From: Escherichia coli
GTDB taxonomy: Bacteria > Pseudomonadota > Gammaproteobacteria > Enterobacterales > Enterobacteriaceae
Reading direction: 5' to 3' (one strand)
Assembly: GCF_050320075.1 (NCBI RefSeq)
Contig: NZ_CP190018.1
Length of the DNA stretch: 64,000 bases
The notes beneath the pieces are model-generated. The model made no database searches. It had not been told where the DNA came from and worked only from the letters and a program-made list of their open reading frames with translations. Each line of letters starts with the position of its first letter. Position 1 is the stretch's first letter. Positions 9,526-41,533 of this stretch are shown here, piece by piece. The position numbers and the translations under genes were made by a program.

Positions 9526-9921
9526 TCACATTTCATAGGTAATGACATAAGTCAGATCGGCTGAACTCCACAGGCCCGCATCATCGTCGCGCCGGTAGTC
9601 ATAGCCACTGGCCACCATACTGGTGATCAAATCTGACAGTGCCGGGATATCGCTCATCACCGGATAAATCCGGGACTCCATCCACGCATCCAGCTCTGAA
9701 TCCGGCACCTGAGCAGGCAGGAAAACTTCGATATGCAGCTCCGCCTGCCAGGTATCGCTGTCCAGCTCTTCGCCCGTGTATTCAGCGCCGGTGAGATAAA
9801 CGGCAACTGCCGGAAAATCCGCCTCATCAAAAACAGCGGGGCGACCATCAAAAAGCGTCGCCCCGGTGTCATGCTTCTCCAGTGCATCCAGTACGGCTGC
9901 ACGGAGTTCAGTATGTTTCAT
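9526..9921 (-). CDS. U: Tail terminator protein U
   Basis: 131-aa [51 protein letters not shown]... matches lambda gpU. Confidence 0.93.
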
Positions 9922-12393: not shown

Positions 12394-12726
12394 TTAAACG
12401 ATGCTGATTGCCGTTCCGGCAAACGCGGTCCGTTTTTTCGTCTCGTCGCTGGCAGCCTCCGGCCAGAGCACATCCTCATAACGGAACGTGCCGGACTTGT
12501 AGAACGTCAGCGTGGTGCTGGTCTGGTCAGCAGCAACCGCAAGAATGCCAACGGCAGCACCGTCGGTGGTGCCATCCCACGCAACCAGCTTACGGCTGGA
12601 GGTGTCCAGCATCAGCGGGGTCATTGCAGGCGCTTTCGCACTCAATACGCCGGGCGCGGTTGCGGTATGAGCCGGGTCACTGTTGCCCTGCGGCTGGTAA
12701 TGGGTAAAGGTTTCTTTGCTCGTCAT
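12394..12726 (-). CDS. D: Capsid decoration protein D
   Basis: [26 protein letters not shown]... 110 aa, matches lambda gpD. Confidence 0.95.
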
Positions 12727-12735
12727 AAACATCCC

Positions 12736-14035
12736 TTACACTGGTGTGTTCAGCAAATCGTTAACGGCATCAGATGCCGGGTTACCTGCAGCCAGCGGTG
12801 CCGGTGCCCCCTGCATCAGACGATCCAGCGCAGTGTCACTGCGCGCCTGTGCACTCTGTGGTGCAGCTGCCAGAATGCGGCGGGCCGTTTCCACGGTCAT
12901 ACCGGGGGTTTCTGCCAGCACGCGGGCCTGTTCTTCGCGTCCGTGAGCCTCCTCACAGTTGAGGATCCCCATAATGCGGCTGTTTTCTGCCGCAACCGCA
13001 GCGGTGATCTGCGCGTTCACGTCCGGCTGCGCCGCGCTGGCGTTTTCGCCCTCCGTCGCTGGCACCACGTCAGTAACGTCAGCCTGCGAAGCAGTGGCTG
13101 AAACAGTTGTTGATTGAGTCTCTTTGGTCATTCGCCCTCCTGAGAGACGGGATTTACGTGCATCCAGTGCATCACGCATAACGGTGATCGCATCGGTACT
13201 GTTAACAAGTTCATCAGCCAGTCCGGCATCAATGGCCTCCTGACCGCTGTACACTGCAGCCTCGGTATCCAGCACAGCCTGCACAGACAGGCCGGTATAT
13301 GCCGACACCTTCTGCGCAAACATCTGGCGGGTTGCGTCCATCCGGGACTGCAGTGTCTCCCGGACGTCATCCGGAAGATGGCTGTAGGGATTGCCATCCA
13401 CCTTATGGCTGCCGCTGTAAATCAGCGTGATTTCCACGCCCTGTTTCTCCAGCGCAGCACCGTAATTGCTGTGAGCCATCATGACGCCGATGGAGCCTGT
13501 CCGGGCGGTCTGCGTGACCAGACGCCGGGAGGCGGCGCTGGCAAGCAGCTGACCTGCACTGCAGTTCATGTCGTTGGCCAGCGCCCATACCGGTTTTATG
13601 TCTCGCACACGGGCGATGATGTCAGCACAGTCAAATGCTCCCGCCACCATCCCGCCCGGTGTGTCCATATCCAGCAGAATGCCGTCCACCATCGGATCGC
13701 TGGCAGCCTGTTGCAGACGGGCGATAATGCCGTTGTAACCGGTCATCCCCGAGTACGGCTGCAGCGCCCGCGTCCGGCTGACCAGCGTACCGGACACCGG
13801 CAGCACGGCGATGCCGTTCATGACCTGATAGCTGCGGGCCTGTCGTGGTCCGTCATCATCACCGGATAACGCCAGCGCCGCGGGTGCCTCTCCGGCAGTC
13901 AGGCTGTCGCCGGATACTGCATCCGTCAGGCGGCTGATCCCAAGCTGGCCTGCAAGCGCACAAAAGAAAACCCGCGCATAGGCGGGTTCAAGCATCAGCG
14001 GCTCATTAAAAGCCATGCTGGCAATATGCGGGAGA

Positions 14036-22121: not shown

Positions 22122-23081
22122 TTAATTTACCATCAGTCTTAGAGCCAGTTCGTCCGGATAGGGATCGAAGTAATTCTGTGTAAGCAAGTAATCATTAGGA
22201 TACTCACCCAGATAATGCTTCAGCAGAGTCAACGGCGCAAGAAGAGGTAATGTGCCAGAACGATAGTTAAGTATAACCTCGCTCAACTCTTTACGCTGGC
22301 GTGTACTTAAGTAGTTACTAAAATACCCCTGTATATGCATCATCACATTCGTGTGATTTTTACGTGATGCAGGTTTTCTGAGAATCGCCATCAGCTTATC
22401 ACGATACACCTCAAAGTATGATTCAAGGTCCGCCCACTCGTGTATTGCAGCCACAAATGGTCCCATATCTTTATAGCCTGCCTGACTATGCGCCAACAAC
22501 TGAAGCTTATAACGACTATGAAAAGCTAATAACTCTCTTCTTGATAATTTCTCCTTGTAAAGGTGATTGAGCTCATGCAAAGCAAAAACTCTTTCAACAA
22601 AATTCTCACGAAGCACTGGATCATGTAATCGCCCATCCTCTTCAACCGGTAGCCAGGAAAACTTTTCCATCAAAGTGCTCGTAAATAGTCCCACTCCATC
22701 TTTACGACCTCGATTACCATTTTCATCATAGACACGCACGCGCTCCATGCCACAGCTGGGAGATTTAGCACAAACCACAAACCCCGATACATCCTTTAAT
22801 TTGTCCATATAAGAACGACTAAACTCTGTCATTCTCTCTGTCACATCCTCATTCTGGTCGTGGCTGAAACACATCCGTATATTTCCTTGCGTCGAGCGCA
22901 CAAGACGTAGAGCAGGACGCGGAACTGGCAGCCCTATAGCCATTTCCGGACATACTGGTCTGAATGTTACCCATTCCACTAATTTGTCCATTAAAAAGTC
23001 AGCTCTTTTGTGACCACCATCAAAACGAACAGCAGAACCGGCCAGACAACCGCTGATTCCAATCACAGGTTTTTTTATCAT
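22122..23081 (-). CDS. DUF523/DUF1722 (YbgA-like) family protein, Cys-rich N-terminal half (prophage cargo)
   Basis: 319-aa ORF MIKKPVIGISGCLAGSAVRFDGGHKRADFLMDKLVEWVTFRPVCPEMAIGLPVPRPALRL... resembles YbgA-type DUF523-DUF1722 proteins. Confidence 0.7.
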   Translation of the reverse strand: MIKKPVIGISGCLAGSAVRFDGGHKRADFLMDKLVEWVTFRPVCPEMAIGLPVPRPALRLVRSTQGNIRMCFSHDQNEDVTERMTEFSRSYMDKLKDVSGFVVCAKSPSCGMERVRVYDENGNRGRKDGVGLFTSTLMEKFSWLPVEEDGRLHDPVLRENFVERVFALHELNHLYKEKLSRRELLAFHSRYKLQLLAHSQAGYKDMGPFVAAIHEWADLESYFEVYRDKLMAILRKPASRKNHTNVMMHIQGYFSNYLSTRQRKELSEVILNYRSGTLPLLAPLTLLKHYLGEYPNDYLLTQNYFDPYPDELALRLMVN

Positions 23082-23273: not shown

Positions 23274-23798
23274 ATGAAGTTATGGCCTGTGTTGACTGGC
23301 ATTGCACTCTCTTTCACTCTTATAGCATGTAAGGCCCCGACACCACCTAAAGGTGTGCAGCCGATTACAAATTTTGACGCCAACCGCTACCTCGGAAAGT
23401 GGTATGAAATAGCTCGCCTCGAGAACCGGTTCGAACGTGGTCTGGAACAGGTCAGCGCTACTTATGGAAAACGGAACGACGGAGGGATTCGTGTACTTAA
23501 CCGTGGATACGATCCAACGAAAAATAAATGGAGCGAGAGCGAAGGTAAAGCATACTTTACTGGAGATACTAAAACTGCAGCGTTGAAGGTTTCGTTTTTT
23601 GGCCCCTTCTATGGTGGCTATAATGTAATCAAACTGGATGATGAGTATAAGTATGCTCTTGTCAGTGGTCCGAACAGAGAATACCTATGGATTCTGGCAA
23701 GGACCCCAACTATTCCAGATAAAGTAAAAGCAGACTATGTGCGAACCGCTCAAAAGTTGGGATTCAATGTCAATGAATTATTATGGGTTAAACAATAA
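23274..23798 (+). CDS. Bacterial lipocalin (Blc-like outer-membrane lipoprotein) paralog (prophage cargo)
   Basis: 174-aa ORF with lipobox LIAC and NFDANRYLGKWYEIARLENRFERGLEQVSATYG...KVSFFGPFYGGYNVIKLDDEYKYALVSGPNREYLWILARTPT, closely resembling E. coli Blc. Confidence 0.85.
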   Translation: MKLWPVLTGIALSFTLIACKAPTPPKGVQPITNFDANRYLGKWYEIARLENRFERGLEQVSATYGKRNDGGIRVLNRGYDPTKNKWSESEGKAYFTGDTKTAALKVSFFGPFYGGYNVIKLDDEYKYALVSGPNREYLWILARTPTIPDKVKADYVRTAQKLGFNVNELLWVKQ

Positions 23799-23865: not shown

Positions 23866-24575
23866 CGCCTATAAGGCTCTCTTACCAGCCGCGCCCTAAC
23901 AGGCGCACACGATCTGACATTTGCATCCAACTTCGTTACTTACGGCCCGTAAACGGGCTGCCCGGATAGGGAATCGATAACTGCTCTCCCATTTTATCCT
24001 CTTCAAGCTGGTGCTTTATGTAGTCCTGTATCTTCGCCGTGTTCTTACCCACCGTATCGACATAGTACCCTCGGCACCAGAACTCCCTGTTTCTGTATTT
24101 GAATTTCAAATCCCCAAACTGCTCGTAAAGCATCAGACTGCTTTTCCCTTTCAGATATCCCATAAAGCCGGATACGCTCATTTTGGGTGGGATTTCCACA
24201 AGCATATGGATATGATCTGCGCAGCACTCTGCTTCCAGAATCCGTACGCTTTTCCACTCACACAGCTTTCTCAAAATACTGCCTATCGCCCTACGCTTCT
24301 CTCCGTAAAACGCCAGTCTTCGGTATTTCGGCGCAAAAACTATGTGATATTTACAGTTCCAGCGGGTGTGCACTAAGCTCTTTTCGTCCCCCATTGGGAC
24401 CCCCTTTTGATTTCTTGTTTGACACTTGCAGTTGCCAGACCGCAAGGTGTTTTAACAAATCAAAAGGGGTTTTAATAACTGGCTCAAAGCTGAAAGCTTT
24501 CCGGAACCCCCAGCCTAGCTGGGGGTTTTCTGTGCACAAAAAAACCAGCCTTTGGGGAGGCTGGCTAAATCAGGA
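23866..24575 (-). mobile_element. IS200 insertion sequence (boundaries approximate)
   Basis: Contains the IS200 TnpA gene plus end hairpins (GGCCCGTAAACGGGC near 23945; CCCCCAGCCTAGCTGGGGG and CCAGCCTTTGGGGAGGCTGG near 24500..24570). Confidence 0.8.
23936..24394 (-). CDS. tnpA: IS200/IS605-family Y1 (HUH) transposase TnpA
   Basis: MGDEKSLVHTRWNCKYHIVFAPKYRRLAFYGEKRRAIGSILRKLCEWKSVRILEAECCADHIHMLVEIPP... matches IS200 TnpA (152 aa). Confidence 0.93.
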   Translation of the reverse strand: MGDEKSLVHTRWNCKYHIVFAPKYRRLAFYGEKRRAIGSILRKLCEWKSVRILEAECCADHIHMLVEIPPKMSVSGFMGYLKGKSSLMLYEQFGDLKFKYRNREFWCRGYYVDTVGKNTAKIQDYIKHQLEEDKMGEQLSIPYPGSPFTGRK

Positions 24576-25264: not shown

Positions 25265-25627
25265 TCATTCATCTCCCTGTTCAGTGATGGTCAGTTCCAG
25301 CTTTCCACCTTTGACAACCGGCATCTTCACAACGCGGTAATCAACGACCTGAGCATCATCCAACCAGAAACCTGCTTTGGTGAGTGCGTCAAAAGCGGCC
25401 TTTTGTAGATTATCCAGGTCACGGCGACGGCGATCCGGCATGTGACACTCAATGCGGATTTTCACAGGCATAGCCAGGCCGATATCCAGCATTGCGTTTT
25501 TAATGATTCGGGCGACGTTTTCGCGGTATGCCTGCCCCTCTGCGCTGATGTGCGTGCGCCCGCGATTATGGCGGTAATAGCGATTATTGCTCGGCGGCCA
25601 GGGTAATGTGATATTGTAGGTATTCAC
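25265..25627 (-). CDS. rusA: Holliday-junction resolvase RusA
   Basis: 120-aa [57 protein letters not shown]... matches DLP12 RusA. Confidence 0.92.
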
Positions 25628-25914
25628 GCCTTAATTACCCCCTCTTTCAGCCAGATAACCTGCGTTCTCGCCATACCTTCCAGCGCGCATTCTTTTGCAT
25701 ATCCAGCGTCAACAAAATGCGTGCGACGGTCGATCTCGTCGTGACAGGCAGAACATGCAATGGTGGCAATCAGGTCTGGCGGTTTGATACCGGTACCGCA
25801 CAATCCAGCCAGCCGGATATGTGCCAGTACAGACGTTTCAGGATTGCCATTACATACGCCAGGGATTCTTACCTGGCATTCCCGACCACGCGCTGCTTTT
25901 CTCAAATCAGCCAT
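25624..25914 (-). CDS. YbcO-like prophage protein (Cys/His-rich, putative nuclease)
   Basis: [64 protein letters not shown]... resembles DLP12 YbcO (96 aa). Confidence 0.85.
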
Positions 25915-26077
25915 GATTCCTCCTTGCTGCCAGTCGCAACCATTTTTTATCAACCAGGCTGGCGGTATATCCGAGCAGTGTTGGTATTTCGGATGGTTTC
26001 AGCTCAGGCCTACGCTTACGACGATTTGGTACTTTGTAGATGTGTCCGTTCATGACACGAATAAGCGGTGTAGCCAT
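25907..26077 (-). CDS. NinE-family small protein
   Basis: Hand-translated 56-aa [59 protein letters not shown], overlapping the ybcO-like start (ATGGCTGA); position between ninB and ybcO. Confidence 0.6.
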   Translation of the reverse strand: MATPLIRVMNGHIYKVPNRRKRRPELKPSEIPTLLGYTASLVDKKWLRLAARRNHG

Positions 26078-26532
26078 TACGCCTCCTGCTTATCACGCAG
26101 CAGCTGGAACTCGCAGCTCTGCGGAATAGTCAGGTGGCAGCCAATATTCATCGCCCAGGCTTCAACCTTACACAGGAAGACATACATCTCTCCGGTATCA
26201 AGGTCGGAGGTATGGCGTAACGACTGGATAGTGGTGATATCACCGGTTACGACATCAACCAGGTCTTTGGTTTCATAACCGAGATATGTGTGTTTGAGAG
26301 CATCTTTTACCCAAGCTGGAGTGGCGAACGTTTTACCCCTGCTGATGAGGTATTCACTGATTTCGCTGTACCACATGTGGCTGAGTGCATTCTGGGAAAG
26401 ACTGCGTCTCTCGCGCCACGGTTTAAGCACCATGCGAAAGCATTTGCCGTCCTCCAGATAAGGCTGGATCTGCCGACCGATAGCGGTGAAGTTACCGCGA
26501 TGTAATTTGATGCCATCTTGTGGGAGGTTCAC
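26077..26532 (-). CDS. ninB: Recombination protein NinB
   Basis: 151-aa [61 protein letters not shown]... resembles NinB family proteins. Confidence 0.85.
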
Positions 26533-26726
26533 GCTTCACCTCCGCAGAGGTCAAACGTTGGATGCAAAGAATCGCAGGTGCATTTCTGCATCTGTGAAGA
26601 GAGAAGAGAGTTTAGATTGTATGTGCGCATAAACGTCCCCGTTTAGCGCAGAAGTCACCGGAGTTGTTCAGGCTCCAATGGCATGATTATGGCTGGTTGA
26701 TTATTGGAAATCAAATGTGCTGAAAA

Positions 26727-27236
26727 TTAGTCTGCCAAGTCTTCCTCAGTCGCAACTGGGTAATTCCAAATATCAAAAAAAGCTATAGCCTCCTGCCATT
26801 TGCTCCATAAGTTATCAAGTACTTGTGTAGGTTCCGTACTTTTAAAAACAGAATCAGCCGCATCACCGTTATGAACTTCCTCGTACAGTTCCATTATTAG
26901 CAGATTAACAAAGTACTGTTTCAACATTAATGCCTGATTACCTTCTTTCTGCTGGCTATCCTGCTTGATGATCTCCATCGCCCGTACTAGGCACCTGATG
27001 ATATCCGCTGCATCATTAACGCTCCATTCAGATCCGCGCTTATCTTTAGCTGATGAATTGGCTCTCTCAGCGCAAGCCTTTAAAGACTCATAAAGGTAAA
27101 CTCTATTTTGTAGCTGCAGCGCTTTTTTTGACGTGTACCAACTTGCAAGCGCCGACCCCGCTGCGGCTAATGTGCCAAACGCAGAAATACCTGCTGCTAT
27201 TGCACTTAAGTCGGCACTGTCAAAGTTCCACATCAT
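26727..27236 (-). CDS. Hypothetical protein with one N-terminal transmembrane segment (prophage cargo, unknown function)
   Basis: 169-aa ORF MMWNFDSADLSAIAAGISAFGTLAAAGSALASWYTSKK... then a hydrophilic acidic tail; low GC; no family recognised. Confidence 0.55.
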   Translation of the reverse strand: MMWNFDSADLSAIAAGISAFGTLAAAGSALASWYTSKKALQLQNRVYLYESLKACAERANSSAKDKRGSEWSVNDAADIIRCLVRAMEIIKQDSQQKEGNQALMLKQYFVNLLIMELYEEVHNGDAADSVFKSTEPTQVLDNLWSKWQEAIAFFDIWNYPVATEEDLAD

Positions 27237-27905
27237 CGTTACACCTTATATAAATACCCCTCAGTAATATCCAATAAGGTATGTGCACAATCAATATAAT
27301 TTTATCCGTATCGGCACATAGCGATTTGAAGGCTACTGGTAATAGTATATTTTAGATTATATCGTCCAGTTTACAGCACCCGTATTTTATGAAATGGACT
27401 CGCATATTACCCAAAAAATGCCAGCACTTCCGTCATCGTAGAATGCTGGCAGTATTTCTAACTAGTGACTTTATTGGAACAGATTCTGACGGAAATATGG
27501 TAACACTCGACTCCACTTATCATCCAGCCACGGCTGGAATTTTACATGTGCCGTTTATCTGGCGAGGATTGCTCGCGCTCTGTTGAGTATCTGGGGATAT
27601 TCATGCTCGATAGAAGTAAAGCGGCCGGCTTCGCGGTGCTCCGCAACCTGAAGTAGTGGAGTAACGTTCTGGCAGGCAGTTAACATCACATCACCTGCTC
27701 GCCATAACCAAGCACGTGCACAAAGTTTGTTATCAGTGAATTGTTTTGTGATTGGGTATTGTTGAACTGCTAGAACGAGAACGCCAGCATCCATTGGCAG
27801 TCCCTATAGTAAAACCATAGCTCAGGACGCTTCGTTCAGGATAGATAATTTTATTGTACTTACCTAACTTTCTTACTATAGCACGGTTGAAAAAGTGATT
27901 ATTAC

Positions 27906-29432
27906 TCAAAAATAAACCTCACCATCAACCATATATTTGAGAGTACTTATCGCCTGCTGGGCGGATATTATTTTCATTAAAGGATAGTGTTTAAAAACAA
28001 TGCCATTCATAAAATAGATATCACAGGTTTTATTATCTGTATTGATTATGATTTTTTCGAATGTTTTATAGGCAAGTGTACGACATAGCTCTCGCCCATT
28101 TTTACTGGTTAAGTCAATAGCATGAAAATCACCAAGTGAACTCACCGCTTTACTCTTCAAAGTTTTTAATGATACAGAAGCCCTTCGTAATTCCTTATCT
28201 AATACTCTGATTTTTTCTGCTATAGCGGTAACTTCAGGCGCAACAGATAATGCAGCAATTAAATTATTAATTTTCATCTGGAGCTCAATAATTTTCAACT
28301 CTAAAGTTTCATTAGCATCTTTCTTGTTTTCAACTGGTTGGATTTTACTACAATTAAAAAGCAACTCATTAATGATATTATAATCAACCAAATCTCTCTT
28401 TATTGATGGCCTGTCACATCGATGCAGTCTTCTCATCGGACAAACATAATAGCCATGCAAACTTCCAGATACCGCATGAACAATCATGGTATTACCACAA
28501 GCCTCGCACTTCATAACTGTTCGAAGTAGATTTATCAACATAGGATTTTTGCTACTATTGCTAATACCAAAAGGTGCCAACCGAATTTCCTGCACAGCGT
28601 AAAACAAATCATCTGATATGACTCTGGGATAATAGCCAGCGATTTCACTTATTCCTTTACCTCTTGCACGATATGAAGGTACGCATATACCTATCAGAGC
28701 TTTATTCGCTAATAATTTTTCAATTACAGAAGGTCCCCATGCACTTTCTTTTCCTGAGAAATTCTTTACAGCATGATCATTTAAATACTTGGCTATTGCA
28801 TTCAATGAGCGCCTTTCCATCCTGAGTTTAAAAATTAGCTCAATAGTTTTCACCCTGTCGGGGTCTGGAACAAAAGCCGTTCTTTTGTCATCCAATGAGA
28901 GCCATCTCGGACAAGACGCCGTCATAATCGTGCCTGACTCCAGTGCATCCTGCCGTTTTTTCTTCCATGATAATTTAACCCGACTTGACTTTATCTCGCT
29001 TTCTTCATTTGCCCTTTGTGCTATAAGTATGGCTTTTATTAATGAATATGGCTCATTCAATGAGTCAATATTATAGACTGTATTATCGCAAAGAGTTATA
29101 ACATCAATACCGTGATTCAAAATCAATTTCAGACGCTCAATCGCTTCACCGACTTTTTCTCTTGAAAGTCTGTCCAGACTTTCAACTAACAATGTAGTCC
29201 CTGGCAATATATAACCATGTTCTATAGCATCTAAAAATTCCGAAAAAGCTCCTGATTGTGCATGCTTTCCATTGAATGCGCTTAACCCCAAATCTTCATA
29301 CGTTACGGTATCAAGGTAATAATCACTATTTACCTTTAGCCATTCAGTAATAAGCCTTCTCTGGCGGTTTAATGAATCACCAGACATCTGACCTGGTGAT
29401 GAAAATCGCATATATGCTATGGCTTTTTTCAT
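27906..29432 (-). CDS. Large serine recombinase (resolvase/invertase catalytic domain plus recombinase and Cys-rich zinc-ribbon-like domains), DLP12 YbcK type
   Basis: 508-aa ORF MKKAIAYMRFSSPGQMSGDSLNRQRRLITEWL... (catalytic Ser in RFSSPGQ) with downstream CEACGN...CPMRRLHRCDRP cysteine cluster; low GC. Confidence 0.85.
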   Translation of the reverse strand: MKKAIAYMRFSSPGQMSGDSLNRQRRLITEWLKVNSDYYLDTVTYEDLGLSAFNGKHAQSGAFSEFLDAIEHGYILPGTTLLVESLDRLSREKVGEAIERLKLILNHGIDVITLCDNTVYNIDSLNEPYSLIKAILIAQRANEESEIKSSRVKLSWKKKRQDALESGTIMTASCPRWLSLDDKRTAFVPDPDRVKTIELIFKLRMERRSLNAIAKYLNDHAVKNFSGKESAWGPSVIEKLLANKALIGICVPSYRARGKGISEIAGYYPRVISDDLFYAVQEIRLAPFGISNSSKNPMLINLLRTVMKCEACGNTMIVHAVSGSLHGYYVCPMRRLHRCDRPSIKRDLVDYNIINELLFNCSKIQPVENKKDANETLELKIIELQMKINNLIAALSVAPEVTAIAEKIRVLDKELRRASVSLKTLKSKAVSSLGDFHAIDLTSKNGRELCRTLAYKTFEKIIINTDNKTCDIYFMNGIVFKHYPLMKIISAQQAISTLKYMVDGEVYF

Positions 29433-29687
29433 GGTGACACCTGCTAAAGTATGCTTTTATAAACCTTAGTGGTGAGATATGATTTTTGTTTAATTTTTAT
29501 TTAAAAAGACAATTAAGGTCACATTATCTTGAATATACAACAATAATCGTATTGCAATTTTCTTACACCATAATCTTGAAAGCACAAAAGAATGAATAAA
29601 AACTAAAGACATTAACAAAAAGCATAAAACGAGGCCCATATAAATATACGAACCTCCATATTTTAGTCGTTTAAAAACAAATTATTT

Positions 29688-30020
29688 TTAATGTGGCGTG
29701 CTTCGTGACAATAAATTAATAACCAACACACCGGCACAAATCAACATCATGCCTATAATGGCTGGCAGGTCCAATCGTTGGCCGAAAAATCCCCATGATA
29801 GTAAGCTAATCAGGACAATACCGACTCCTGACCAGATAGCATAAGCAATCCCTGTAGGAATATAAGCCAGCGTCTGAGCTAATAACCAGAATGATGCACA
29901 ATAACAAATAATTGTACCAACAGATGGCCATAACCGTGTAAAACCTTCTGAAAACTTCATTAAGGTTGTACCAATGACCTCTGCAAGTATTGCACCACCA
30001 AGATAAATATAAGGATTCAT
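29688..30020 (-). CDS. emrE: Small multidrug resistance (SMR) efflux protein EmrE
   Basis: MNPYIYLGGAILAEVIGTTLMKFSEGFTRLWPSVGTIICYCASFWLLAQTLAYIPTGIAYAIWSGVGIVLISLLSWGFFGQRLDLPAIIGMMLICAGVL... essentially identical to E. coli EmrE (110 aa). Confidence 0.95.
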   Translation of the reverse strand: MNPYIYLGGAILAEVIGTTLMKFSEGFTRLWPSVGTIICYCASFWLLAQTLAYIPTGIAYAIWSGVGIVLISLLSWGFFGQRLDLPAIIGMMLICAGVLVINLLSRSTPH

Positions 30021-30087
30021 AGCATATTCTTTCCTGTTCAAACTGGAGAGAATTGTACTACAGTTTGAACTCAACTCACCTGTTTCA

Positions 30088-30390
30088 TCATTGTGTACCC
30101 ATTGATGTTCTTTTATATACCCTCAATACCCGTTTCATCGCGGCACTCTGGCGACACTCCTTAAAAATCAAATTCGTGCTCACCTTTCCTTCCCATTCTT
30201 CTCTGGTAGCGAACCGATAATACACCGTTCGCCAGACCTTACCATCAACGACCAGGATTCCTGCCCGCGCCATTTTAGCCGCAGCCTGATTTATGCTGGT
30301 TACCGTTGCGCCTGTTACCGCGGCAACGTCCTGCGCACAGAATTTCTTATGAGTCCCCAGGTAATGAATAATTGCCTCTTTGCCCGTCAT
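30088..30390 (-). CDS. ren: Ren protein
   Basis: 100-aa ORF MTGKEAIIHYLGTHKKFCAQDVAAVTGATVTSINQAAAKMARAGILVVDGKVWRTVYYRFATREE... matches lambda Ren. Confidence 0.9.
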   Translation of the reverse strand: MTGKEAIIHYLGTHKKFCAQDVAAVTGATVTSINQAAAKMARAGILVVDGKVWRTVYYRFATREEWEGKVSTNLIFKECRQSAAMKRVLRVYKRTSMGTQ

Positions 30391-31088
30391 ACCCTTGCTC
30401 CTTTCAGCCCAAACTTAGCTTTGATTTCTGCGATCTTCGCCAGAGCCTGAGCACGATTTAGAGGTCTACCGCCCATGACAGGAAGTTGTTTTACTGGTTC
30501 AGGTATAGCCTCACCACGGTTAATTCGTGCGGTCATACAGGACAGTTCATCGGCAGCCTTGCGCCGTAATTCCGCGTCAGTCAACGCATTGGCCCGCATG
30601 TTCTGATACAGGTTGGTAACCAGCCAGTAGTGCGCGTTTGATTTCCACGGATAAGACTCTGCATCCGGATACAGCCCGCGCTTCCGGCAATACTCGTAAA
30701 CCATATCAACCAGCTCGCTGGCGTTTGGCAGCCCAGCGGTAACGGATGCTTCTTCCCGGCACCAGGCGACAAACTGCCCGGGTGATGGCAGGAATGGTCG
30801 ATTCTGCCGACGGGCTACGCGCATTCCAGCGTTAACCTGTTCCATTGTGGTGATCCCGTTTTCCCGAAAAGCCAGCACCCACTGGCGGCGGATTTCGTTC
30901 AGTTCATTCTGGTCACGGTTAGCCAGGCTCGCCGGGAAAGTTGCCAGTAACTGGCTGAACACACCGTTGATGATCTGCGCTACCTGCTGTACCTGTGGCT
31001 TTTCGTCGTACTGTTCCGGCATGTTGTTGGCGATCCGACGCATCTGCTCACGGTCAAAGTTAACCATCTGTGCGGCGATGTTTTTCAT
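30387..31088 (-). CDS. P: Replication protein P (DnaB helicase loader)
   Basis: 233-aa ORF MKNIAAQMVNFDREQMRRIANNMPEQYDEKPQVQQVAQIINGVFSQLLATFPASLANRDQNE... matches lambda P. Confidence 0.95.
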   Translation of the reverse strand: MKNIAAQMVNFDREQMRRIANNMPEQYDEKPQVQQVAQIINGVFSQLLATFPASLANRDQNELNEIRRQWVLAFRENGITTMEQVNAGMRVARRQNRPFLPSPGQFVAWCREEASVTAGLPNASELVDMVYEYCRKRGLYPDAESYPWKSNAHYWLVTNLYQNMRANALTDAELRRKAADELSCMTARINRGEAIPEPVKQLPVMGGRPLNRAQALAKIAEIKAKFGLKGARV

Positions 31089-32104
31089 AGATCCACCCCG
31101 TAAATCCAGTCAGTGTTTGTCAGGTCGAGTTTTGGTTTGCCGACTGTCACGCCAGCCTGTTGCTTGTTCCGGTTGATTTCGAGCTGGGTCCACTTGTCGC
31201 GGAGTTTGGCCGGACTCAGCACGTTACCGGACCAGAAGTTGTCCTGGCAGGCCCAGCGGAACAGTACACACATGTCGCGGTGGTTACGTCCATCACGTTC
31301 ACGCATCAGACGGATATCGTTAGCCCACCCTGCAAAATTCGGTTTTCTGGCTGATGGCGCGATGGTCTTCACCATGTCAAACATCCACTCTGCGGCGGTC
31401 AGGTCTTCTGCTGTCCCCCACTTGCTGCCGCTCTGAATTGCAGCATCCGGTTTCACCACAGGAAGATCGTTTTCTGGTTGGTCAGAGGATTCGCCAGAAT
31501 TCTCGGACGAAAAAGGTTTTATATTGTCTTTTGTTAGTTTGTCTTTTGTGTTTACCTGATTCGGGTAAACGCCTTTACCTGATTTGGGTAAACTTTTTTT
31601 ACCTGATTCAGGTAAATTTACCTCTTTCAGGTAAACTTTATTTTTCTTACCTGATTCGGGTAATGTTGACCATTCACTGACCACATTATTAATGCCGGTA
31701 TTCCGCCCGCTCTGAATAAAAATCCCACGCTTTACCAGAACACTTTTTGCAGCAGAACACTTGTGCGGCAATATCCCGGTTAATTCGGAAAGTTGCTCGT
31801 TGCTAACCCAATCCAGTTTTTTATTAAAGCCATATGTTTTGCGCATGACAGCCAGAAAGACCAGAAGCTGGTGCTGTGTTAATCCGGCCAGCATCACAGC
31901 TTCCAGCAACTCATTTGCAATGCGCGTATAACCATCATCGAGATCTGCCACGCGCGGCTCCTTTTGTGCCTCATCCGGCACTGGAAAATTGAATATCTCA
32001 GCAGTGTTTGCCATAATTCCTTCCGCAATGAGTGCGTTACGATTTGCACCTGAAAGTCGGCTCTGTTCCCGCAGACCGGCTTTCGCCATTTCTGAACCTG
32101 TCAT
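31085..32104 (-). CDS. O: Replication initiator O (non-lambda N-terminal iteron-binding domain, lambda-like C-terminal P-interaction domain); alternative start at 32014
   Basis: 339-aa ORF whose C-terminal ~100 aa match lambda O; start overlaps the upstream ydaT-like stop in ATGA; ori iterons inside the gene. Confidence 0.88.
   Translation of the reverse strand: MTGSEMAKAGLREQSRLSGANRNALIAEGIMANTAEIFNFPVPDEAQKEPRVADLDDGYTRIANELLEAVMLAGLTQHQLLVFLAVMRKTYGFNKKLDWVSNEQLSELTGILPHKCSAAKSVLVKRGIFIQSGRNTGINNVVSEWSTLPESGKKNKVYLKEVNLPESGKKSLPKSGKGVYPNQVNTKDKLTKDNIKPFSSENSGESSDQPENDLPVVKPDAAIQSGSKWGTAEDLTAAEWMFDMVKTIAPSARKPNFAGWANDIRLMRERDGRNHRDMCVLFRWACQDNFWSGNVLSPAKLRDKWTQLEINRNKQQAGVTVGKPKLDLTNTDWIYGVDL
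31545..31660. repeat. Replication origin iterons inside O: about five ~18-bp palindromic repeats (TTACCTGATTCGGGTAAA-like) plus AT-rich tract
   Basis: Direct repeats seen in sequence: TACCTGATTCGGGTAAAC, TACCTGATTTGGGTAAAC, TACCTGATTCAGGTAAAT, ACCTCTTTCAGGTAAAC, TACCTGATTCGGGTAATG; position equivalent to lambda ori within O. Confidence 0.8.
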
Positions 32105-32646
32105 ATTGCCCCCAGCATGGTGGTAACCATCGCCATTAATGGACCAGCCAGATCCGGGTCCACACGAAACATCGACACAATACCTTCACTCATTTCCTTC
32201 AGTTTCTGGTGGCGTGGTGCGTTGAGAATGACCGCCTGCTTTGCCTCACAGAGTTCCTTTTCCATTTCAGCCAGCCGAGCCATGAAGCTATCCTGCTCAA
32301 CCAGGTGGCCGCGATATTCCAGCGGTAGTACCGCCAGAATTGCCGGGGTCAGTTCACGCACGTTATTTCGGTATTTTTCAGAATCGAATTTGTTATCGAG
32401 GAAGCGGAACAGCTTCTGGCGTGCACGGCTGACATCATCAGGGAAATCGATGGTGCCGCCGCCCTGCTCCCGATACTCATTCACAATGAGTGCGGCAACA
32501 ACATCCTGATTATCTGCAGCCGACCACGCGCGAACGGCATCACGGATTTTTTCGTGGCCTGGCACCTGTTTTATTTGAGAACGATTTATCACCGCAGTCG
32601 GGCTAAATCCGCTAGTCTGTTGGTATGTAAGTGGTTGCATAGTCAT
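32101..32646 (-). CDS. YdaT-like protein (Rac-prophage ydaT family) in the cII position
   Basis: 181-aa ORF containing ...ELTPAILAVLPLEYRGHLVEQDSFMARLA..., resembling Rac YdaT as I recall it. Confidence 0.6.
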   Translation of the reverse strand: MTMQPLTYQQTSGFSPTAVINRSQIKQVPGHEKIRDAVRAWSAADNQDVVAALIVNEYREQGGGTIDFPDDVSRARQKLFRFLDNKFDSEKYRNNVRELTPAILAVLPLEYRGHLVEQDSFMARLAEMEKELCEAKQAVILNAPRHQKLKEMSEGIVSMFRVDPDLAGPLMAMVTTMLGAI

Positions 32647-33807: not shown

Positions 33808-35415
33808 ATGGATATGTCAAAAAAAATTTTTGAATTCAAAAATTACCCAATAGTCTTTATTGGCTCAGGCATTTCAAAAAGATATTTAGAGAACTACCCA
33901 ACGTGGGAAGAGCTATTAAACGAGTATTGGAAAATAACAAATCCCACAAATGATTTCTATAGTTATCTTTTAACAATAAAAGAATCACATAAAAATAACA
34001 GTGATAATGATATCGATCATAAGATTTATACAGAGGCAGCAAGTAAAATTGAAAATGATTACAATCTATTGTTTAGGACTGGCAAATTAAAATTAAATGG
34101 ACTAGATGCCAAGAGGGTTTTTAGTGAAGATATTTCACCATTTAAATACGCCATATGCCAAAGATTTTCTAATAACACAATCAGAAAGGATGTAAATCTT
34201 GATGAATTAGCATCATTTAAAACATTAATAAAAAAGGCCAAGATAATCATCACTACAAATTATGATGCTTTCATAGAAAATTTACTTCAAGAGCAAAATG
34301 TAACTCCAAAACTCTATATTGGAAATAATGGTTTTTTCGAAGATACTATTGGCTGGAGTGAGTTATACAAAATACATGGTGATATAAAGGATCCACACTC
34401 AATAATCATAAATAAAGATGATTACGAAAAATATGACAACAAATCTATACTCATTAGTGCCAAGATACTATCTAACATGATTAAAAATCCAATAGTTTTT
34501 CTTGGATATTCTTTAACTGACAGGAATGTAAAGAAACTTCTTTCTGATTTTTCCTCACAACTACCTAGAGAAGATGGTCGAAAATCAGCTGAAAGAATAA
34601 TTTTGATTGAATATAAAGAGAATGAACAGGAAGTAGTACCAAAACAGATTACCGATCAACAGCTACAAATTACATATACATCTGTTAAAACAGATAACTA
34701 TAAACAGATCTATGATGAGATCAGTGCTGTTGATGAAGGGCTCTCACCTTATGATGTTTTAAGGTATCAAAGAGCCATTAAAACACTTATCATTAATGAG
34801 GGTGAAAAAGGGCACTTAGATACTCTATTGGTTTCACCTTCTGACTTAGACAGACTTGAAGAAAGTGTTAAACAAGGAAAAAATTTAGTTGTTGCTCTAG
34901 GCGATAAAAAGTATGTATTCACACAAGTTAAAGAAATAAATTATCTTGAAGACTACTTATTTAATAAAAATGAAATATCTAATAAATTAGCTATAGATTT
35001 CATATTAGGTTCAGTAAACTCATTACAACTTCCATTTTCAAAAACTATAACCTCATGTAATTTGAAAGAGTTAAGTTTGCCAGCTAAATATGTGTTAAAA
35101 CTAAATCAACGCATTGAACGCCACGGAAAACTAGACGACTTGCTCAATAAAATCACCTTAGATAAAATCAATGCAAATAAAATTTACACCAACATCAAAG
35201 ATATAAAGGATGCAAAGTTCAAAAAGTACAAAGAATTGTCTATAGTCATTAAGAACATAAAAAATATCCCCAAAGAGGAGATTGAAGATTATGTTAAAAA
35301 AGAAGCGTTTGTTCAATTCAAGGCATGCGACGTTGACAATTTAAAAACCCAGTATAGGAAACTATTTCTTGCCTACGACTTGTTGATTCATGGAAATGTT
35401 GAAAAGATAAATTAA
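33808..35415 (+). CDS. SIR2-like (sirtuin-family, SIR2_2-type) domain protein with uncharacterised C-terminal half; candidate single-gene anti-phage defence protein in the rexAB-equivalent position
   Basis: 535-aa ORF, about 28-30% GC; motifs FIGSGISK (res 17-24), IIITTNYD (N151), YKIHGD (H190), IVFLGYSLTD (229-238) with Asn-His spacing of 39 as in defence-associated SIR2 domains; directly downstream and co-oriented with the repressor. Confidence 0.7.
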   Translation: MDMSKKIFEFKNYPIVFIGSGISKRYLENYPTWEELLNEYWKITNPTNDFYSYLLTIKESHKNNSDNDIDHKIYTEAASKIENDYNLLFRTGKLKLNGLDAKRVFSEDISPFKYAICQRFSNNTIRKDVNLDELASFKTLIKKAKIIITTNYDAFIENLLQEQNVTPKLYIGNNGFFEDTIGWSELYKIHGDIKDPHSIIINKDDYEKYDNKSILISAKILSNMIKNPIVFLGYSLTDRNVKKLLSDFSSQLPREDGRKSAERIILIEYKENEQEVVPKQITDQQLQITYTSVKTDNYKQIYDEISAVDEGLSPYDVLRYQRAIKTLIINEGEKGHLDTLLVSPSDLDRLEESVKQGKNLVVALGDKKYVFTQVKEINYLEDYLFNKNEISNKLAIDFILGSVNSLQLPFSKTITSCNLKELSLPAKYVLKLNQRIERHGKLDDLLNKITLDKINANKIYTNIKDIKDAKFKKYKELSIVIKNIKNIPKEEIEDYVKKEAFVQFKACDVDNLKTQYRKLFLAYDLLIHGNVEKIN

Positions 35416-40266: not shown

Positions 40267-40485
40267 ATGTACTTGACACTTCAGGAGTGGAACGCACGCC
40301 AGCGACGCCCAAGAAGCCTTGAAACAGTTCGTCGATGGGTGCGCGAATGCAGGATATTCCCTCCTCCGGTTAAGGATGGAAGAGAATATCTGTTCCACGA
40401 ATCAGCGGTAAAGGTTGACTTAAATCGACCAGTAACAGGTAGCCTTTTGAAGAGGATCAGAAATGGGAAGAAGGCGAAGTCATGA
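40267..40485 (+). CDS. xis: Excisionase Xis
   Basis: 72-aa ORF MYLTLQEWNARQRRPRSLETVRRWVRECRIFPPPVKDGREYLFHESAVKVDLNRPVTGSLLKRIRNGKKAKS matches lambda Xis. Confidence 0.95.
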   Translation: MYLTLQEWNARQRRPRSLETVRRWVRECRIFPPPVKDGREYLFHESAVKVDLNRPVTGSLLKRIRNGKKAKS

Positions 40486-41533
40486 GCGCCGGGATTTACC
40501 CCCTAACCTTTATATAAGAAACAATGGATATTACTGCTACAGGGACCCAAGGACGGGTAAAGAGTTTGGATTAGGCAGAGACAGGCGAATCGCAATCACT
40601 GAAGCCATACAGGCCAACATTGAGTTATTTTCAGGACACAAACACAAGCCTCTGACAGCGAGAATCAACAGTGATAATTCCGTTACGTTACATTCATGGC
40701 TTGATCGCTACGAAAAAATCCTGGCCAGCAGAGGAATCAAGCAGAAGACACTCATAAATTACATGAGCAAAATTAAAGCAATAAGGAGGGGGCTGCCTGA
40801 TGCTCCACTTGAAGACATCACCACAAAAGAAATTGCGGCAATGCTCAATGGATACATAGACGAGGGCAAGGCGGCGTCAGCCAAGTTAATCAGATCAACA
40901 CTGAGCGATGCATTCCGAGAGGCAATAGCTGAAGGCCATATAACAACAAACCCTGTCGCTGCCACTCGCGCAGCAAAATCAGAGGTAAGGAGATCAAGAC
41001 TTACGGCTGACGAATACCTGAAAATTTATCAAGCAGCAGAATCATCACCATGTTGGCTCAGACTTGCAATGGAACTGGCTGTTGTTACCGGGCAACGAGT
41101 TGGTGATTTATGCGAAATGAAGTGGTCTGATATCGTAGATGGATATCTTTATGTCGAGCAAAGCAAAACAGGCGTAAAAATTGCCATCCCAACAGCATTG
41201 CATGTTGATGCTCTCGGAATATCAATGAAGGAAACACTTGATAAATGCAAAGAGATTCTTGACGGAGAAACCATAATTGCATCTACTCGTCGTGAACCGC
41301 TTTCATCCGGCACAGTATCAAGGTATTTTATGCGCGCACGAAAAGCATCAGGTCTTTCCTTCGAAGGGGATCCGCCTACCTTTCACGAGTTGCGCAGTTT
41401 GTCTGCAAGACTCTATGAGAAGCAGATAAGCGATAAGTTTGCTCAACATCTTCTCGGGCATAAGTCGGACACCATGGCATCACAGTATCGTGATGACAGA
41501 GGCAGGGAGTGGGACAAAATTGAAATCAAATAA
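40463..41533 (+). CDS. int: Integrase Int (tyrosine recombinase)
   Basis: 356-aa ORF MGRRRSHERRDLPPNLYIRNNGYYCYRDPRTGKEFGLGRDRRIAITEAIQANIELFSGHKHKPLTARINSD... matches lambda Int. Confidence 0.95.
   Translation: MGRRRSHERRDLPPNLYIRNNGYYCYRDPRTGKEFGLGRDRRIAITEAIQANIELFSGHKHKPLTARINSDNSVTLHSWLDRYEKILASRGIKQKTLINYMSKIKAIRRGLPDAPLEDITTKEIAAMLNGYIDEGKAASAKLIRSTLSDAFREAIAEGHITTNPVAATRAAKSEVRRSRLTADEYLKIYQAAESSPCWLRLAMELAVVTGQRVGDLCEMKWSDIVDGYLYVEQSKTGVKIAIPTALHVDALGISMKETLDKCKEILDGETIIASTRREPLSSGTVSRYFMRARKASGLSFEGDPPTFHELRSLSARLYEKQISDKFAQHLLGHKSDTMASQYRDDRGREWDKIEIK

Follow-up and report, generated by a model that had tools for sequence, protein, structure and literature searches.

The gene ybcK lies next to the multidrug efflux gene emrE in a lambda-type prophage on Escherichia coli contig NZ_CP190018.1, within the 64,000-nucleotide stretch of DNA analyzed here (the window; positions count from its first letter). 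It is an already annotated E. coli gene, known from the DLP12 prophage of K-12, and it encodes a 508-residue large serine recombinase. We lean, at somewhat short of even confidence, toward a reading in which ybcK and its short flanks make up a compact, self-contained recombinase cassette that is maintained by selection and has become stranded at this location. Such a cassette would span about 2.1 kb and would consist of a terminator on the emrE side, an untranslated leader, the open reading frame (ORF), and, in K-12, a short hairpin on the ybcL side, which we judged by eye to be a possible terminator. It would lie inside an AT-rich accessory block (emrE and ybcL-ybcM) that occupies the ren-to-ninB hotspot of DLP12-type lambdoid phages.

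YbcK is an apparently active large serine recombinase

A reading made from the sequence alone had described a 508-residue serine recombinase beside emrE, with an N-terminal resolvase domain and C-terminal cysteines, and the ORF, the Pfam domains, and a family alignment all confirm this description. The protein contains a catalytic Resolvase domain (residues 4–161, 2e-18), followed by a Recombinase domain (PF07508, residues 191–284, 5e-14) and a four-cysteine zinc ribbon (Zn_ribbon_recom, PF13408, residues 302–357, 2e-7), which is the arrangement of the large serine recombinase superfamily. YbcK has the motif AYMRFSSPGQ. Across an alignment of 22 family members, with relatives down to 29% identity, residues R9, S11, Q15, D87, R88, and R91 are all invariant, as are C309, C312, C331, and C339 of the zinc ribbon. 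Judged from its more diverged E. coli allele pairs, ybcK is under strong purifying selection, with a ratio of nonsynonymous to synonymous substitution rates (dN/dS) of 0.04–0.08 at synonymous divergences (dS) of up to 0.18. On these sequence features, YbcK is a genuine large serine recombinase that is apparently active.

The YbcK family profile aligns with the solved serine integrases SPbeta SprA (positions 142–471) and A118 Int (260–476), and a search of the PDB with the single YbcK sequence returns no relative at E ≤ 1e-3. The sole NCBIfam match is to the model for XisF (NF041201), the enzyme of fdxN-element excision. XisF is also a large serine recombinase, but YbcK falls below the threshold of this model (47.6 bits against a cut-off of 375) and is not a member of its family. 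Involvement in defense against phages was considered and set aside, as YbcK has no PADLOC match.

YbcK has the same three-domain architecture and catalytic motif as the phage serine integrases SPbeta SprA, Listeria A118 Int, and TP901-1 Int, and phiC31 and Bxb1 encode further phage serine integrases of that kind. These integrases, however, are encoded beside attP at the end of the prophage and are the sole integrase of their phage, whereas ybcK is internal to its prophage, between ren and ninB, and that prophage uses lambda Int. The tyrosine integrase gene, whose product we take to be lambda Int from its N-terminal sequence, abuts ybhC at attLambda (40463..41533). ybcK is therefore not the integrase of this prophage, and the sequence-only reading was right to call it a second recombinase beside a tyrosine integrase. 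Tn4451 and Tn5397 are compact elements with one mobility gene each, for a large serine 'transposase' (TnpX and TndX, respectively) that both excises and inserts the element; these elements carry cargo and have defined GA-dinucleotide ends. This behavior would match that proposed for YbcK-family cassettes found in several contexts. Unlike those elements, the E. coli cassette carries the recombinase only, its ends are not defined to the nucleotide, and no movement has been seen in E. coli. As with YbcK, the serine recombinases Pin, Gin, Cin, and PinQ accompany a tyrosine integrase in E. coli prophages (PMC12529663). They are small serine recombinases of ~190 residues that flip a tail-fiber segment bounded by inverted repeats, in contrast to the 508 residues and the recombinase and zinc-ribbon domains of YbcK. 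The features of a Gin/Hin/Pin-type DNA invertase are accordingly absent here, in protein length and in DNA, as there are no conserved inverted repeats either locally or across the 64-kb window.

In K-12, ybcK is among 16 listed site-specific recombinase genes (PMC5426353), and its untranslated leader is reported to hold a Rho-dependent terminator that keeps the gene silent (PMC4150792). The searchable literature reports no function or recombination activity for YbcK and calls it a predicted or uncharacterized recombinase, which agrees with the earlier description of its role as unexplained. In the portions of this literature available to us, ybcK appears in gene lists, a sabinene-tolerance screen, and work on Rho terminators, and a functional study was not found.

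Boundaries of the ybcK indel leave emrE outside

ybcK is present in 1,423 of 5,426 complete E. coli genomes at 95.7–100% identity and is full length in 1,397 of them. The K-12 DLP12 protein (UniProt P77698, annotated as 'putative recombinase') is the product of the same gene; the K-12 and window alleles share 95.9% DNA identity, with a product of 508 residues in either case. The two copies are also alike in having emrE and ylcJ upstream and in lying in the interval between ren and the nin genes. They differ downstream, where K-12 ybcK is followed by 309 bp and then ybcL-ybcM, and the window copy by 124 bp, a truncated rha gene, and a 169-codon ORF; homology between the two 3' flanks fades about 40–80 bp past the stop codon. 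The arrangement of the window, with the 3' flank swapped for truncated rha, is found in 488 genomes, and the K-12-type right junction is retained in 673. The prophages differ as well: that of the window looks complete and sits at attLambda, and the cryptic DLP12 is at argU. ybcK is also carried by 12 sequenced lambdoid phages, including Perceval, PhiR70_1, 1W, Lambda_4C10, and Turner, and the order ren-emrE-ybcK holds in both of those that we inspected (n = 2 of 12).

Comparison with loci that lack ybcK identifies the segment that varies. emrE occurs in 3,693 E. coli genomes, and the emrE-ybcK junction in only 1,397. In the ~2,300 genomes with emrE but without ybcK, the emrE allele has about 92% identity, and homology to the window ends 8 nt past the emrE stop codon, at 29680. 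In the two such loci inspected (L104 8061..9920 and L105), this emrE is chromosomal, in the order fliE-emrE-ybcL-ybcM-...-yedF. When the K-12 DLP12 prophage is compared with the chromosomal locus, the emrE and ybcL-ybcM blocks are 4 bp apart in the chromosome and 2,083 bp apart in K-12. The 2,083-bp indel consists of 247 bp, ybcK, and 309 bp, and it has clean edges, at window position 29680 and at K-12 position +309. A viral contig (L139) shows the same empty form in a phage, with the order P-ren-emrE-ybcL-ybcM. As emrE is joined directly to ybcL-ybcM in the inspected loci without ybcK, ybcK is the indel and emrE is its neighbor. The phage ylcH/ybcN upstream region persists for about 160 bp in both inspected chromosomal loci, which makes this locus a lambdoid remnant itself.

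These boundaries do not support the proposal of the sequence-only reading that the recombinase mobilizes emrE as cargo. The indel takes in ybcK and its flanks (2,083 bp) but not emrE, which belongs with ybcL-ybcM. The two genes share no element boundaries and do not consistently occur together, and more than one E. coli context was not seen. Furthermore, the number of full-length ybcK copies equals the number of intact emrE-ybcK junctions, and every ybcK match displayed in the sampled lists is adjacent to emrE and aligns as a single BLAST piece, apart from one copy interrupted by IS1. No inverted, excised, or relocated ybcK copy and no K-12-like empty site was seen among the E. coli genomes. 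Independent movement of ybcK relative to emrE was sought among E. coli alleles, and only ordinary homologous mosaicism was found. In E. coli wlxctx60 (L014 7001..7156), the first 156 nt of ybcK are kept and are fused to a ylcH-like ORF upstream of ybcN; the variant is in a prophage at the same attLambda site and is an ordinary deletion rather than a precise excision.

The outer edges of the block are generic mosaic junctions

Both ybcK and emrE are AT-rich and lie in the ren-nin interval, as had been noted from the sequence. ybcK has a G+C content of 36.5% and emrE 40.5%, and their third-position values (GC3) of 0.30 and 0.33, against ~0.59 in P and ybcN, mark them as foreign DNA. ybcK has the properties of a phage 'moron', namely GC3 unlike that of the backbone, a terminator-like hairpin at its 5' edge, sharp borders, and replacement by other cargo in sister phages.

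The spacer to the left of ybcK (27237..27905) had been described as containing only weak small ORFs and as a possible location of the recombination site. It indeed contains no intact gene, but it is not anonymous DNA, as 545 of its 669 bp are truncated rha and only the 124 bp next to the ybcK stop codon remain. The rha part is 95.5% identical to the 3' part of the intact rha in phages PhiR26_1 and PhiR5_1, where rha is followed by the same 169-codon gene and ybcN, and neither emrE nor ybcK is present. Since rha is present, intact, in phages without ybcK, a recombination site in the spacer is not supported. Relative to these two phages, the segment unique to the window is 27782..30114. Position 30074, given as the right end of the block, is a TTG from which the longest ORF begins; the real start of emrE is at 30020.

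Around the block (25500–31500), only short, chance-level direct and inverted repeats were found, and the whole 64-kb window contains no substantial inverted repeats. A 16-nt inverted repeat that brackets ybcK (27890–27905 and 29316–29331) was rejected as a recombination site because one arm is altered in K-12 without compensation, so that the repeat is not conserved. With no convincing repeats and no structural variants, the suggestion that the recombinase inverts or excises a segment finds no support. The sequence-only reading had coupled such an absence with inactivated catalytic residues as grounds for abandoning its proposal; only the absence was found, as the catalytic residues are intact and purifying selection is strong.

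On the ren side, homology to ren of phages lacking emrE stops at 30115–30124; the C-terminal tail of ren differs in each of three cargo variants compared, with the join at about codon 90. On the other side, the cargo variants all become homologous again at about 26715, where the phage 82 record X92588 annotates −35 and −10 signals at a promoter-like site. We considered the edge near 26715 as a possible attR and rejected it, as the same edge is present in the ybcK-less phages 82, HK639, and CobraSix and coincides with the promoter-like site. A displaced native 3' end of ren downstream of ybcK, the signature of gene replacement, was also looked for and not found. No genome has an empty ren-to-ybcN site, that is, ren and ybcN within about 880 bp. 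From these comparisons, both outer block edges are best described as generic mosaic junctions used by unrelated cargo, and the ren-to-ylcH slot is a general accessory and defense hotspot. In sister prophages and phages, this slot holds a PD-lambda-1 defense gene (PhiR26_1, L022 1906..3408), a 3.9-kb inverse autotransporter (strain MRSN346647, L013 2794..6702), or an alpha/beta hydrolase (phage Perceval, L002 7877..8920).

YbcK relatives occupy accessory regions in other genera

Proteins 38–61% identical to YbcK are encoded in Atlantibacter, Yersinia, Erwinia, Ewingella, Pantoea, Enterobacter, Cedecea, Lonsdalea, Pluralibacter, Citrobacter, and Edaphovirga, and all those with annotatable neighbors are found in the accessory parts of prophages or of other mobile elements. 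Of the relatives at 40–61% identity, some occupy nin-type regions, in the interval from the replication genes to Q, including one in a Pantoea dispersa prophage that also has a tyrosine integrase. Others are at a prophage end, past the tail-fiber and assembly genes and morons (UmuDC, GtrB, Lom, autotransporter), and in one of these the ssrA 3' end is 540 bp away. Some relatives adjoin a tyrosine integrase, and that of Citrobacter koseri is in a plasmid-like setting or one like that of an integrative and conjugative element, with TraD and MobA genes nearby.

Independent pairs of relatives have little in common beyond the gene itself, in several cases with a sharp edge 65–135 bp upstream of it (coordinates are relative to the start codon and stop codon). 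A nin-region copy and an integrase-adjacent copy share −116 to +4, and two Ewingella strains share −65 to +403. Two Atlantibacter-type phages have a left edge at −120 and share sequence to about +1,900, downstream dinI and DUF1367 included. The umuD-umuC-recombinase blocks of Pantoea and Enterobacter share −1939 to +366. Edaphovirga cremea carries two recombinase copies in one genome whose upstream DNA differs and whose sequences become 97% identical at exactly −135. Host yggS lies 407 bp from one copy; upstream of the other are mutS, a gene for a tyrosine integrase, and a 174-codon ORF. Both Edaphovirga contigs break inside the recombinase gene (L040 9866..10449 and L041 9866..10449).

In one Atlantibacter-type phage (L018), a recombinase-KGG-dinI module lies between two direct copies of the 5' part of the nin gene that it interrupts, DUF1367 (a 229-bp repeat, 9622..9850 and 12609..12831), and the copies are 82% identical in DNA and 97% in protein. 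The pattern resembles the trace of an element that enters a gene and supplies it with a replacement end, but a second phage has the recombinase-dinI-DUF1367 order without the repeat, and the pattern is therefore suggestive only. Separately, the umuD-umuC-recombinase block is 88% identical between the Pantoea (L031 8062..11887) and Enterobacter ludwigii (L032 8063..11884) prophages, whose flanks are otherwise different, and SOS-related genes (umuDC and dinI) recur beside YbcK-family recombinases.

Features of the prophage

The prophage adjoins ybhC, and its features around ybcK are collected in Table 1. The minus-strand order is P, ren, emrE, a 49-codon ylcJ-like ORF, ybcK, the 669-bp gap, the 169-codon ORF, a ylcH-like ORF, ybcN/ninB, ninE, ybcO, rusA, and Q. 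Window positions 26000–31000 are 100% identical to E. coli strain YZLc1-3, and the alignable 42 kb are 99.99% identical apart from one insertion sequence (IS) in YZLc1-3. The RefSeq P22AR pseudogene of YZLc1-3 (L001 21472..21795) corresponds to window 27471..27794. ylcJ is listed in PMC6001520. The spacer and the ybcK leader have no Rfam matches at E ≤ 0.1. The 169-codon gene may belong either to the backbone or to the cargo.

Table 1 Features of the ybcK region and its prophage in the window.
Feature	Coordinates	Strand	Basis or remark
ybcK, 508-aa large serine recombinase	27906..29432	-	ORF, Pfam domains, RefSeq annotation
Tyrosine integrase of the prophage, adjoining ybhC at attLambda	40463..41533	+	RefSeq annotation mapped to the window
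ren	30088..30390	-	Mosaic junction within last ~9 codons, about 30115-30124
emrE, small multidrug resistance (SMR) efflux gene, 110 aa	29688..30020	-	NCBIfam EmrE full length, 240.6 bits, cut-off 226
ybcK-specific 5' flank, 247 bp	29433..29679	-	Not in ybcK-less emrE loci; homology to chromosomal emrE-ybcL locus ends at 29680
Terminator-like hairpin	29631..29656		Within ybcK 5' flank, 24 nt inside left edge
ylcJ-like 49-aa ORF	29490..29639		Within ybcK 5' flank
ybcK-associated 3' flank, 124 bp	27782..27905	-	Remainder of 309-bp K-12 3' flank
Truncated rha/antirepressor gene (P22AR C-terminal domain pseudogene)	27237..27781	-	RefSeq pseudogene, PHROG anti-repressor matches
169-aa hypothetical phage gene (phrog_1779)	26727..27236	-	Also 3' of rha in ybcK-less phages
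Right edge of variable interval, promoter-like site upstream of ylcH-ybcN	26686..26715	-	Common to lambdoid phages with and without ybcK
ybcN (NinB family), first conserved nin gene right of variable interval	26077..26532	-	

Several further observations concern other parts of the prophage. Beside cI, at the position of lambda rexAB, a 535-codon SIR2-family ORF of 29–30% G+C (33808..35415, plus strand) matches the PADLOC candidate defense system PDC-S25 nearly full length (6e-236), with weaker ThsA-like SIR2 matches. At the cII position (32101..32646, minus strand), the annotated product is a YdaT toxin-domain protein and not a lambda-type CII. Another cargo slot, between the Q antiterminator and the lysis genes, holds a YbgA-family gene (22122..23081, minus strand) and a lipocalin gene (23274..23798, plus strand). 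An IS200-family tnpA (23936..24445) is intact in the window, which lacks at ~24125 the 2.7-kb ISCro1 (IS66 family) that interrupts this gene in YZLc1-3 (L001 15426..18124).

Interpretation of the ybcK locus

In the cassette reading, the unit would have arrived, or would spread, through the site-specific activity of its own enzyme, and its attachment (att) site would lie within the 65–250 bp upstream of the ybcK start codon. Rho-dependent termination in the leader would normally silence the cassette in lysogens, and expression would occur when antiterminated phage early transcription reads through the leader terminator. As its 3' end has been replaced by truncated rha, the window copy is probably immobile in cis; its protein could act in trans. 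It is further possible, though we regard this broader claim as somewhat doubtful, that YbcK-type recombinases of the Enterobacterales are minimal self-inserting elements that colonize accessory hotspots of temperate phages and islands that have their own tyrosine integrase. The minimal element may comprise the gene, roughly 65–250 bp of upstream and as much as 400 bp of downstream sequence, and in some cases a neighboring moron, and E. coli ybcK would be such an insertion, one that split an emrE-ybcL-ybcM accessory operon.

A number of observations pull the other way. In E. coli, ybcK was seen in a single context, adjacent to emrE and in the same orientation, and mobility is thus not directly indicated. 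Both edges of the indel have a short AATAAT repeat, which would also fit an ancestral emrE-ybcK-ybcLM block from which ybcK was deleted, and the polarity of this 2,083-bp indel is not settled: base composition is uninformative, with GC3 of 0.26–0.35 in all four genes, and ybcL-ybcM occur in Citrobacter and Cedecea without emrE or ybcK beside them, which provides no outgroup. No recombination directionality factor was identified for YbcK, and no att-like motif is conserved at the left boundaries across relatives. Additionally, sharp-edged, gene-sized modules are normal in phage mosaicism and need no self-mobility.

The main rival to the cassette reading, which we consider rather unlikely, is that YbcK has been domesticated as an accessory recombinase to the benefit of the phage and is inherited simply as part of the nin-region mosaic. 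It could serve as an alternative integrase at a secondary chromosomal site, as a resolvase for replication or packaging intermediates, or as a promoter of exchange with resident prophages. Purifying selection and the intact catalytic residues would be expected of such an enzyme, which also fits the company that ybcK keeps among the recombination genes ninB and rusA, its retention in the 12 sequenced lambdoid phages, in each of which it runs in the direction of the early-right operon, and the relative at the same nin-type position in a Pantoea prophage with its own tyrosine integrase. The single, invariant E. coli context likewise fits vertical and homologous inheritance. Yet no permuted prophage was seen that would indicate integration through a ybcK-adjacent site, given the match of 1,397 copies to 1,397 junctions; many close sister phages do without ybcK and have other cargo in the slot; no phenotype is reported in the searchable literature; and the gene is reported to be transcriptionally silenced in K-12. 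The present data cannot separate such a phage-serving recombinase from a cassette.

The two remaining explanations are less probable. That ybcK is a functionless integrase relic of another element, captured by illegitimate recombination and not yet decayed, would explain why it is internal to a prophage in which it is redundant with lambda Int, why its 3' flank in the window runs into a pseudogene, why it is reported silent in K-12, and why IS insertions and truncations, including the IS1-interrupted copy, occasionally occur. A dead gene is nevertheless unlikely, and we think this one quite improbable, given the dN/dS values over the divergences sampled, a full-length frame in 1,397 of 1,423 carrier genomes, and catalytic and zinc-binding residues that do not vary even among the most distant relatives aligned. 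We give still less weight to a recombinase-driven cargo module of emrE and ybcK that inverts, excises, or moves via sites at its edges or in the spacer, a highly improbable reading that is already largely refuted by the ybcK-less emrE loci. The two genes lie side by side in one orientation with a similar AT richness, every phage genome with one of them has the other as well, and the AT-rich block is fairly sharp-edged at about 30115 and about 26715. However, ~2,300 genomes have emrE without ybcK, contiguous with ybcL-ybcM in the two loci inspected; the block edges are also those of PD-lambda-1, the inverse autotransporter, and rha; the spacer is truncated rha; flanking repeats are absent, the 16-nt inverted repeat not being conserved; and inversion or excision variants were not seen.

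What stands, then, is an orphan recombinase that is widespread and clearly under selection, with the idea that it mobilizes emrE removed. The search for a YbcK substrate is narrowed to a few hundred base pairs, the emrE-ybcL spacer provides a natural 'empty site', and the right and left ends of the K-12 cassette provide a candidate joint. If the cassette reading is wrong, ybcK is an ordinary annotated prophage gene. If ybcK is indeed a self-inserting cassette, it would help to explain how single accessory genes enter phage genomes, and genome engineering would gain a compact serine integrase of Gram-negative origin.

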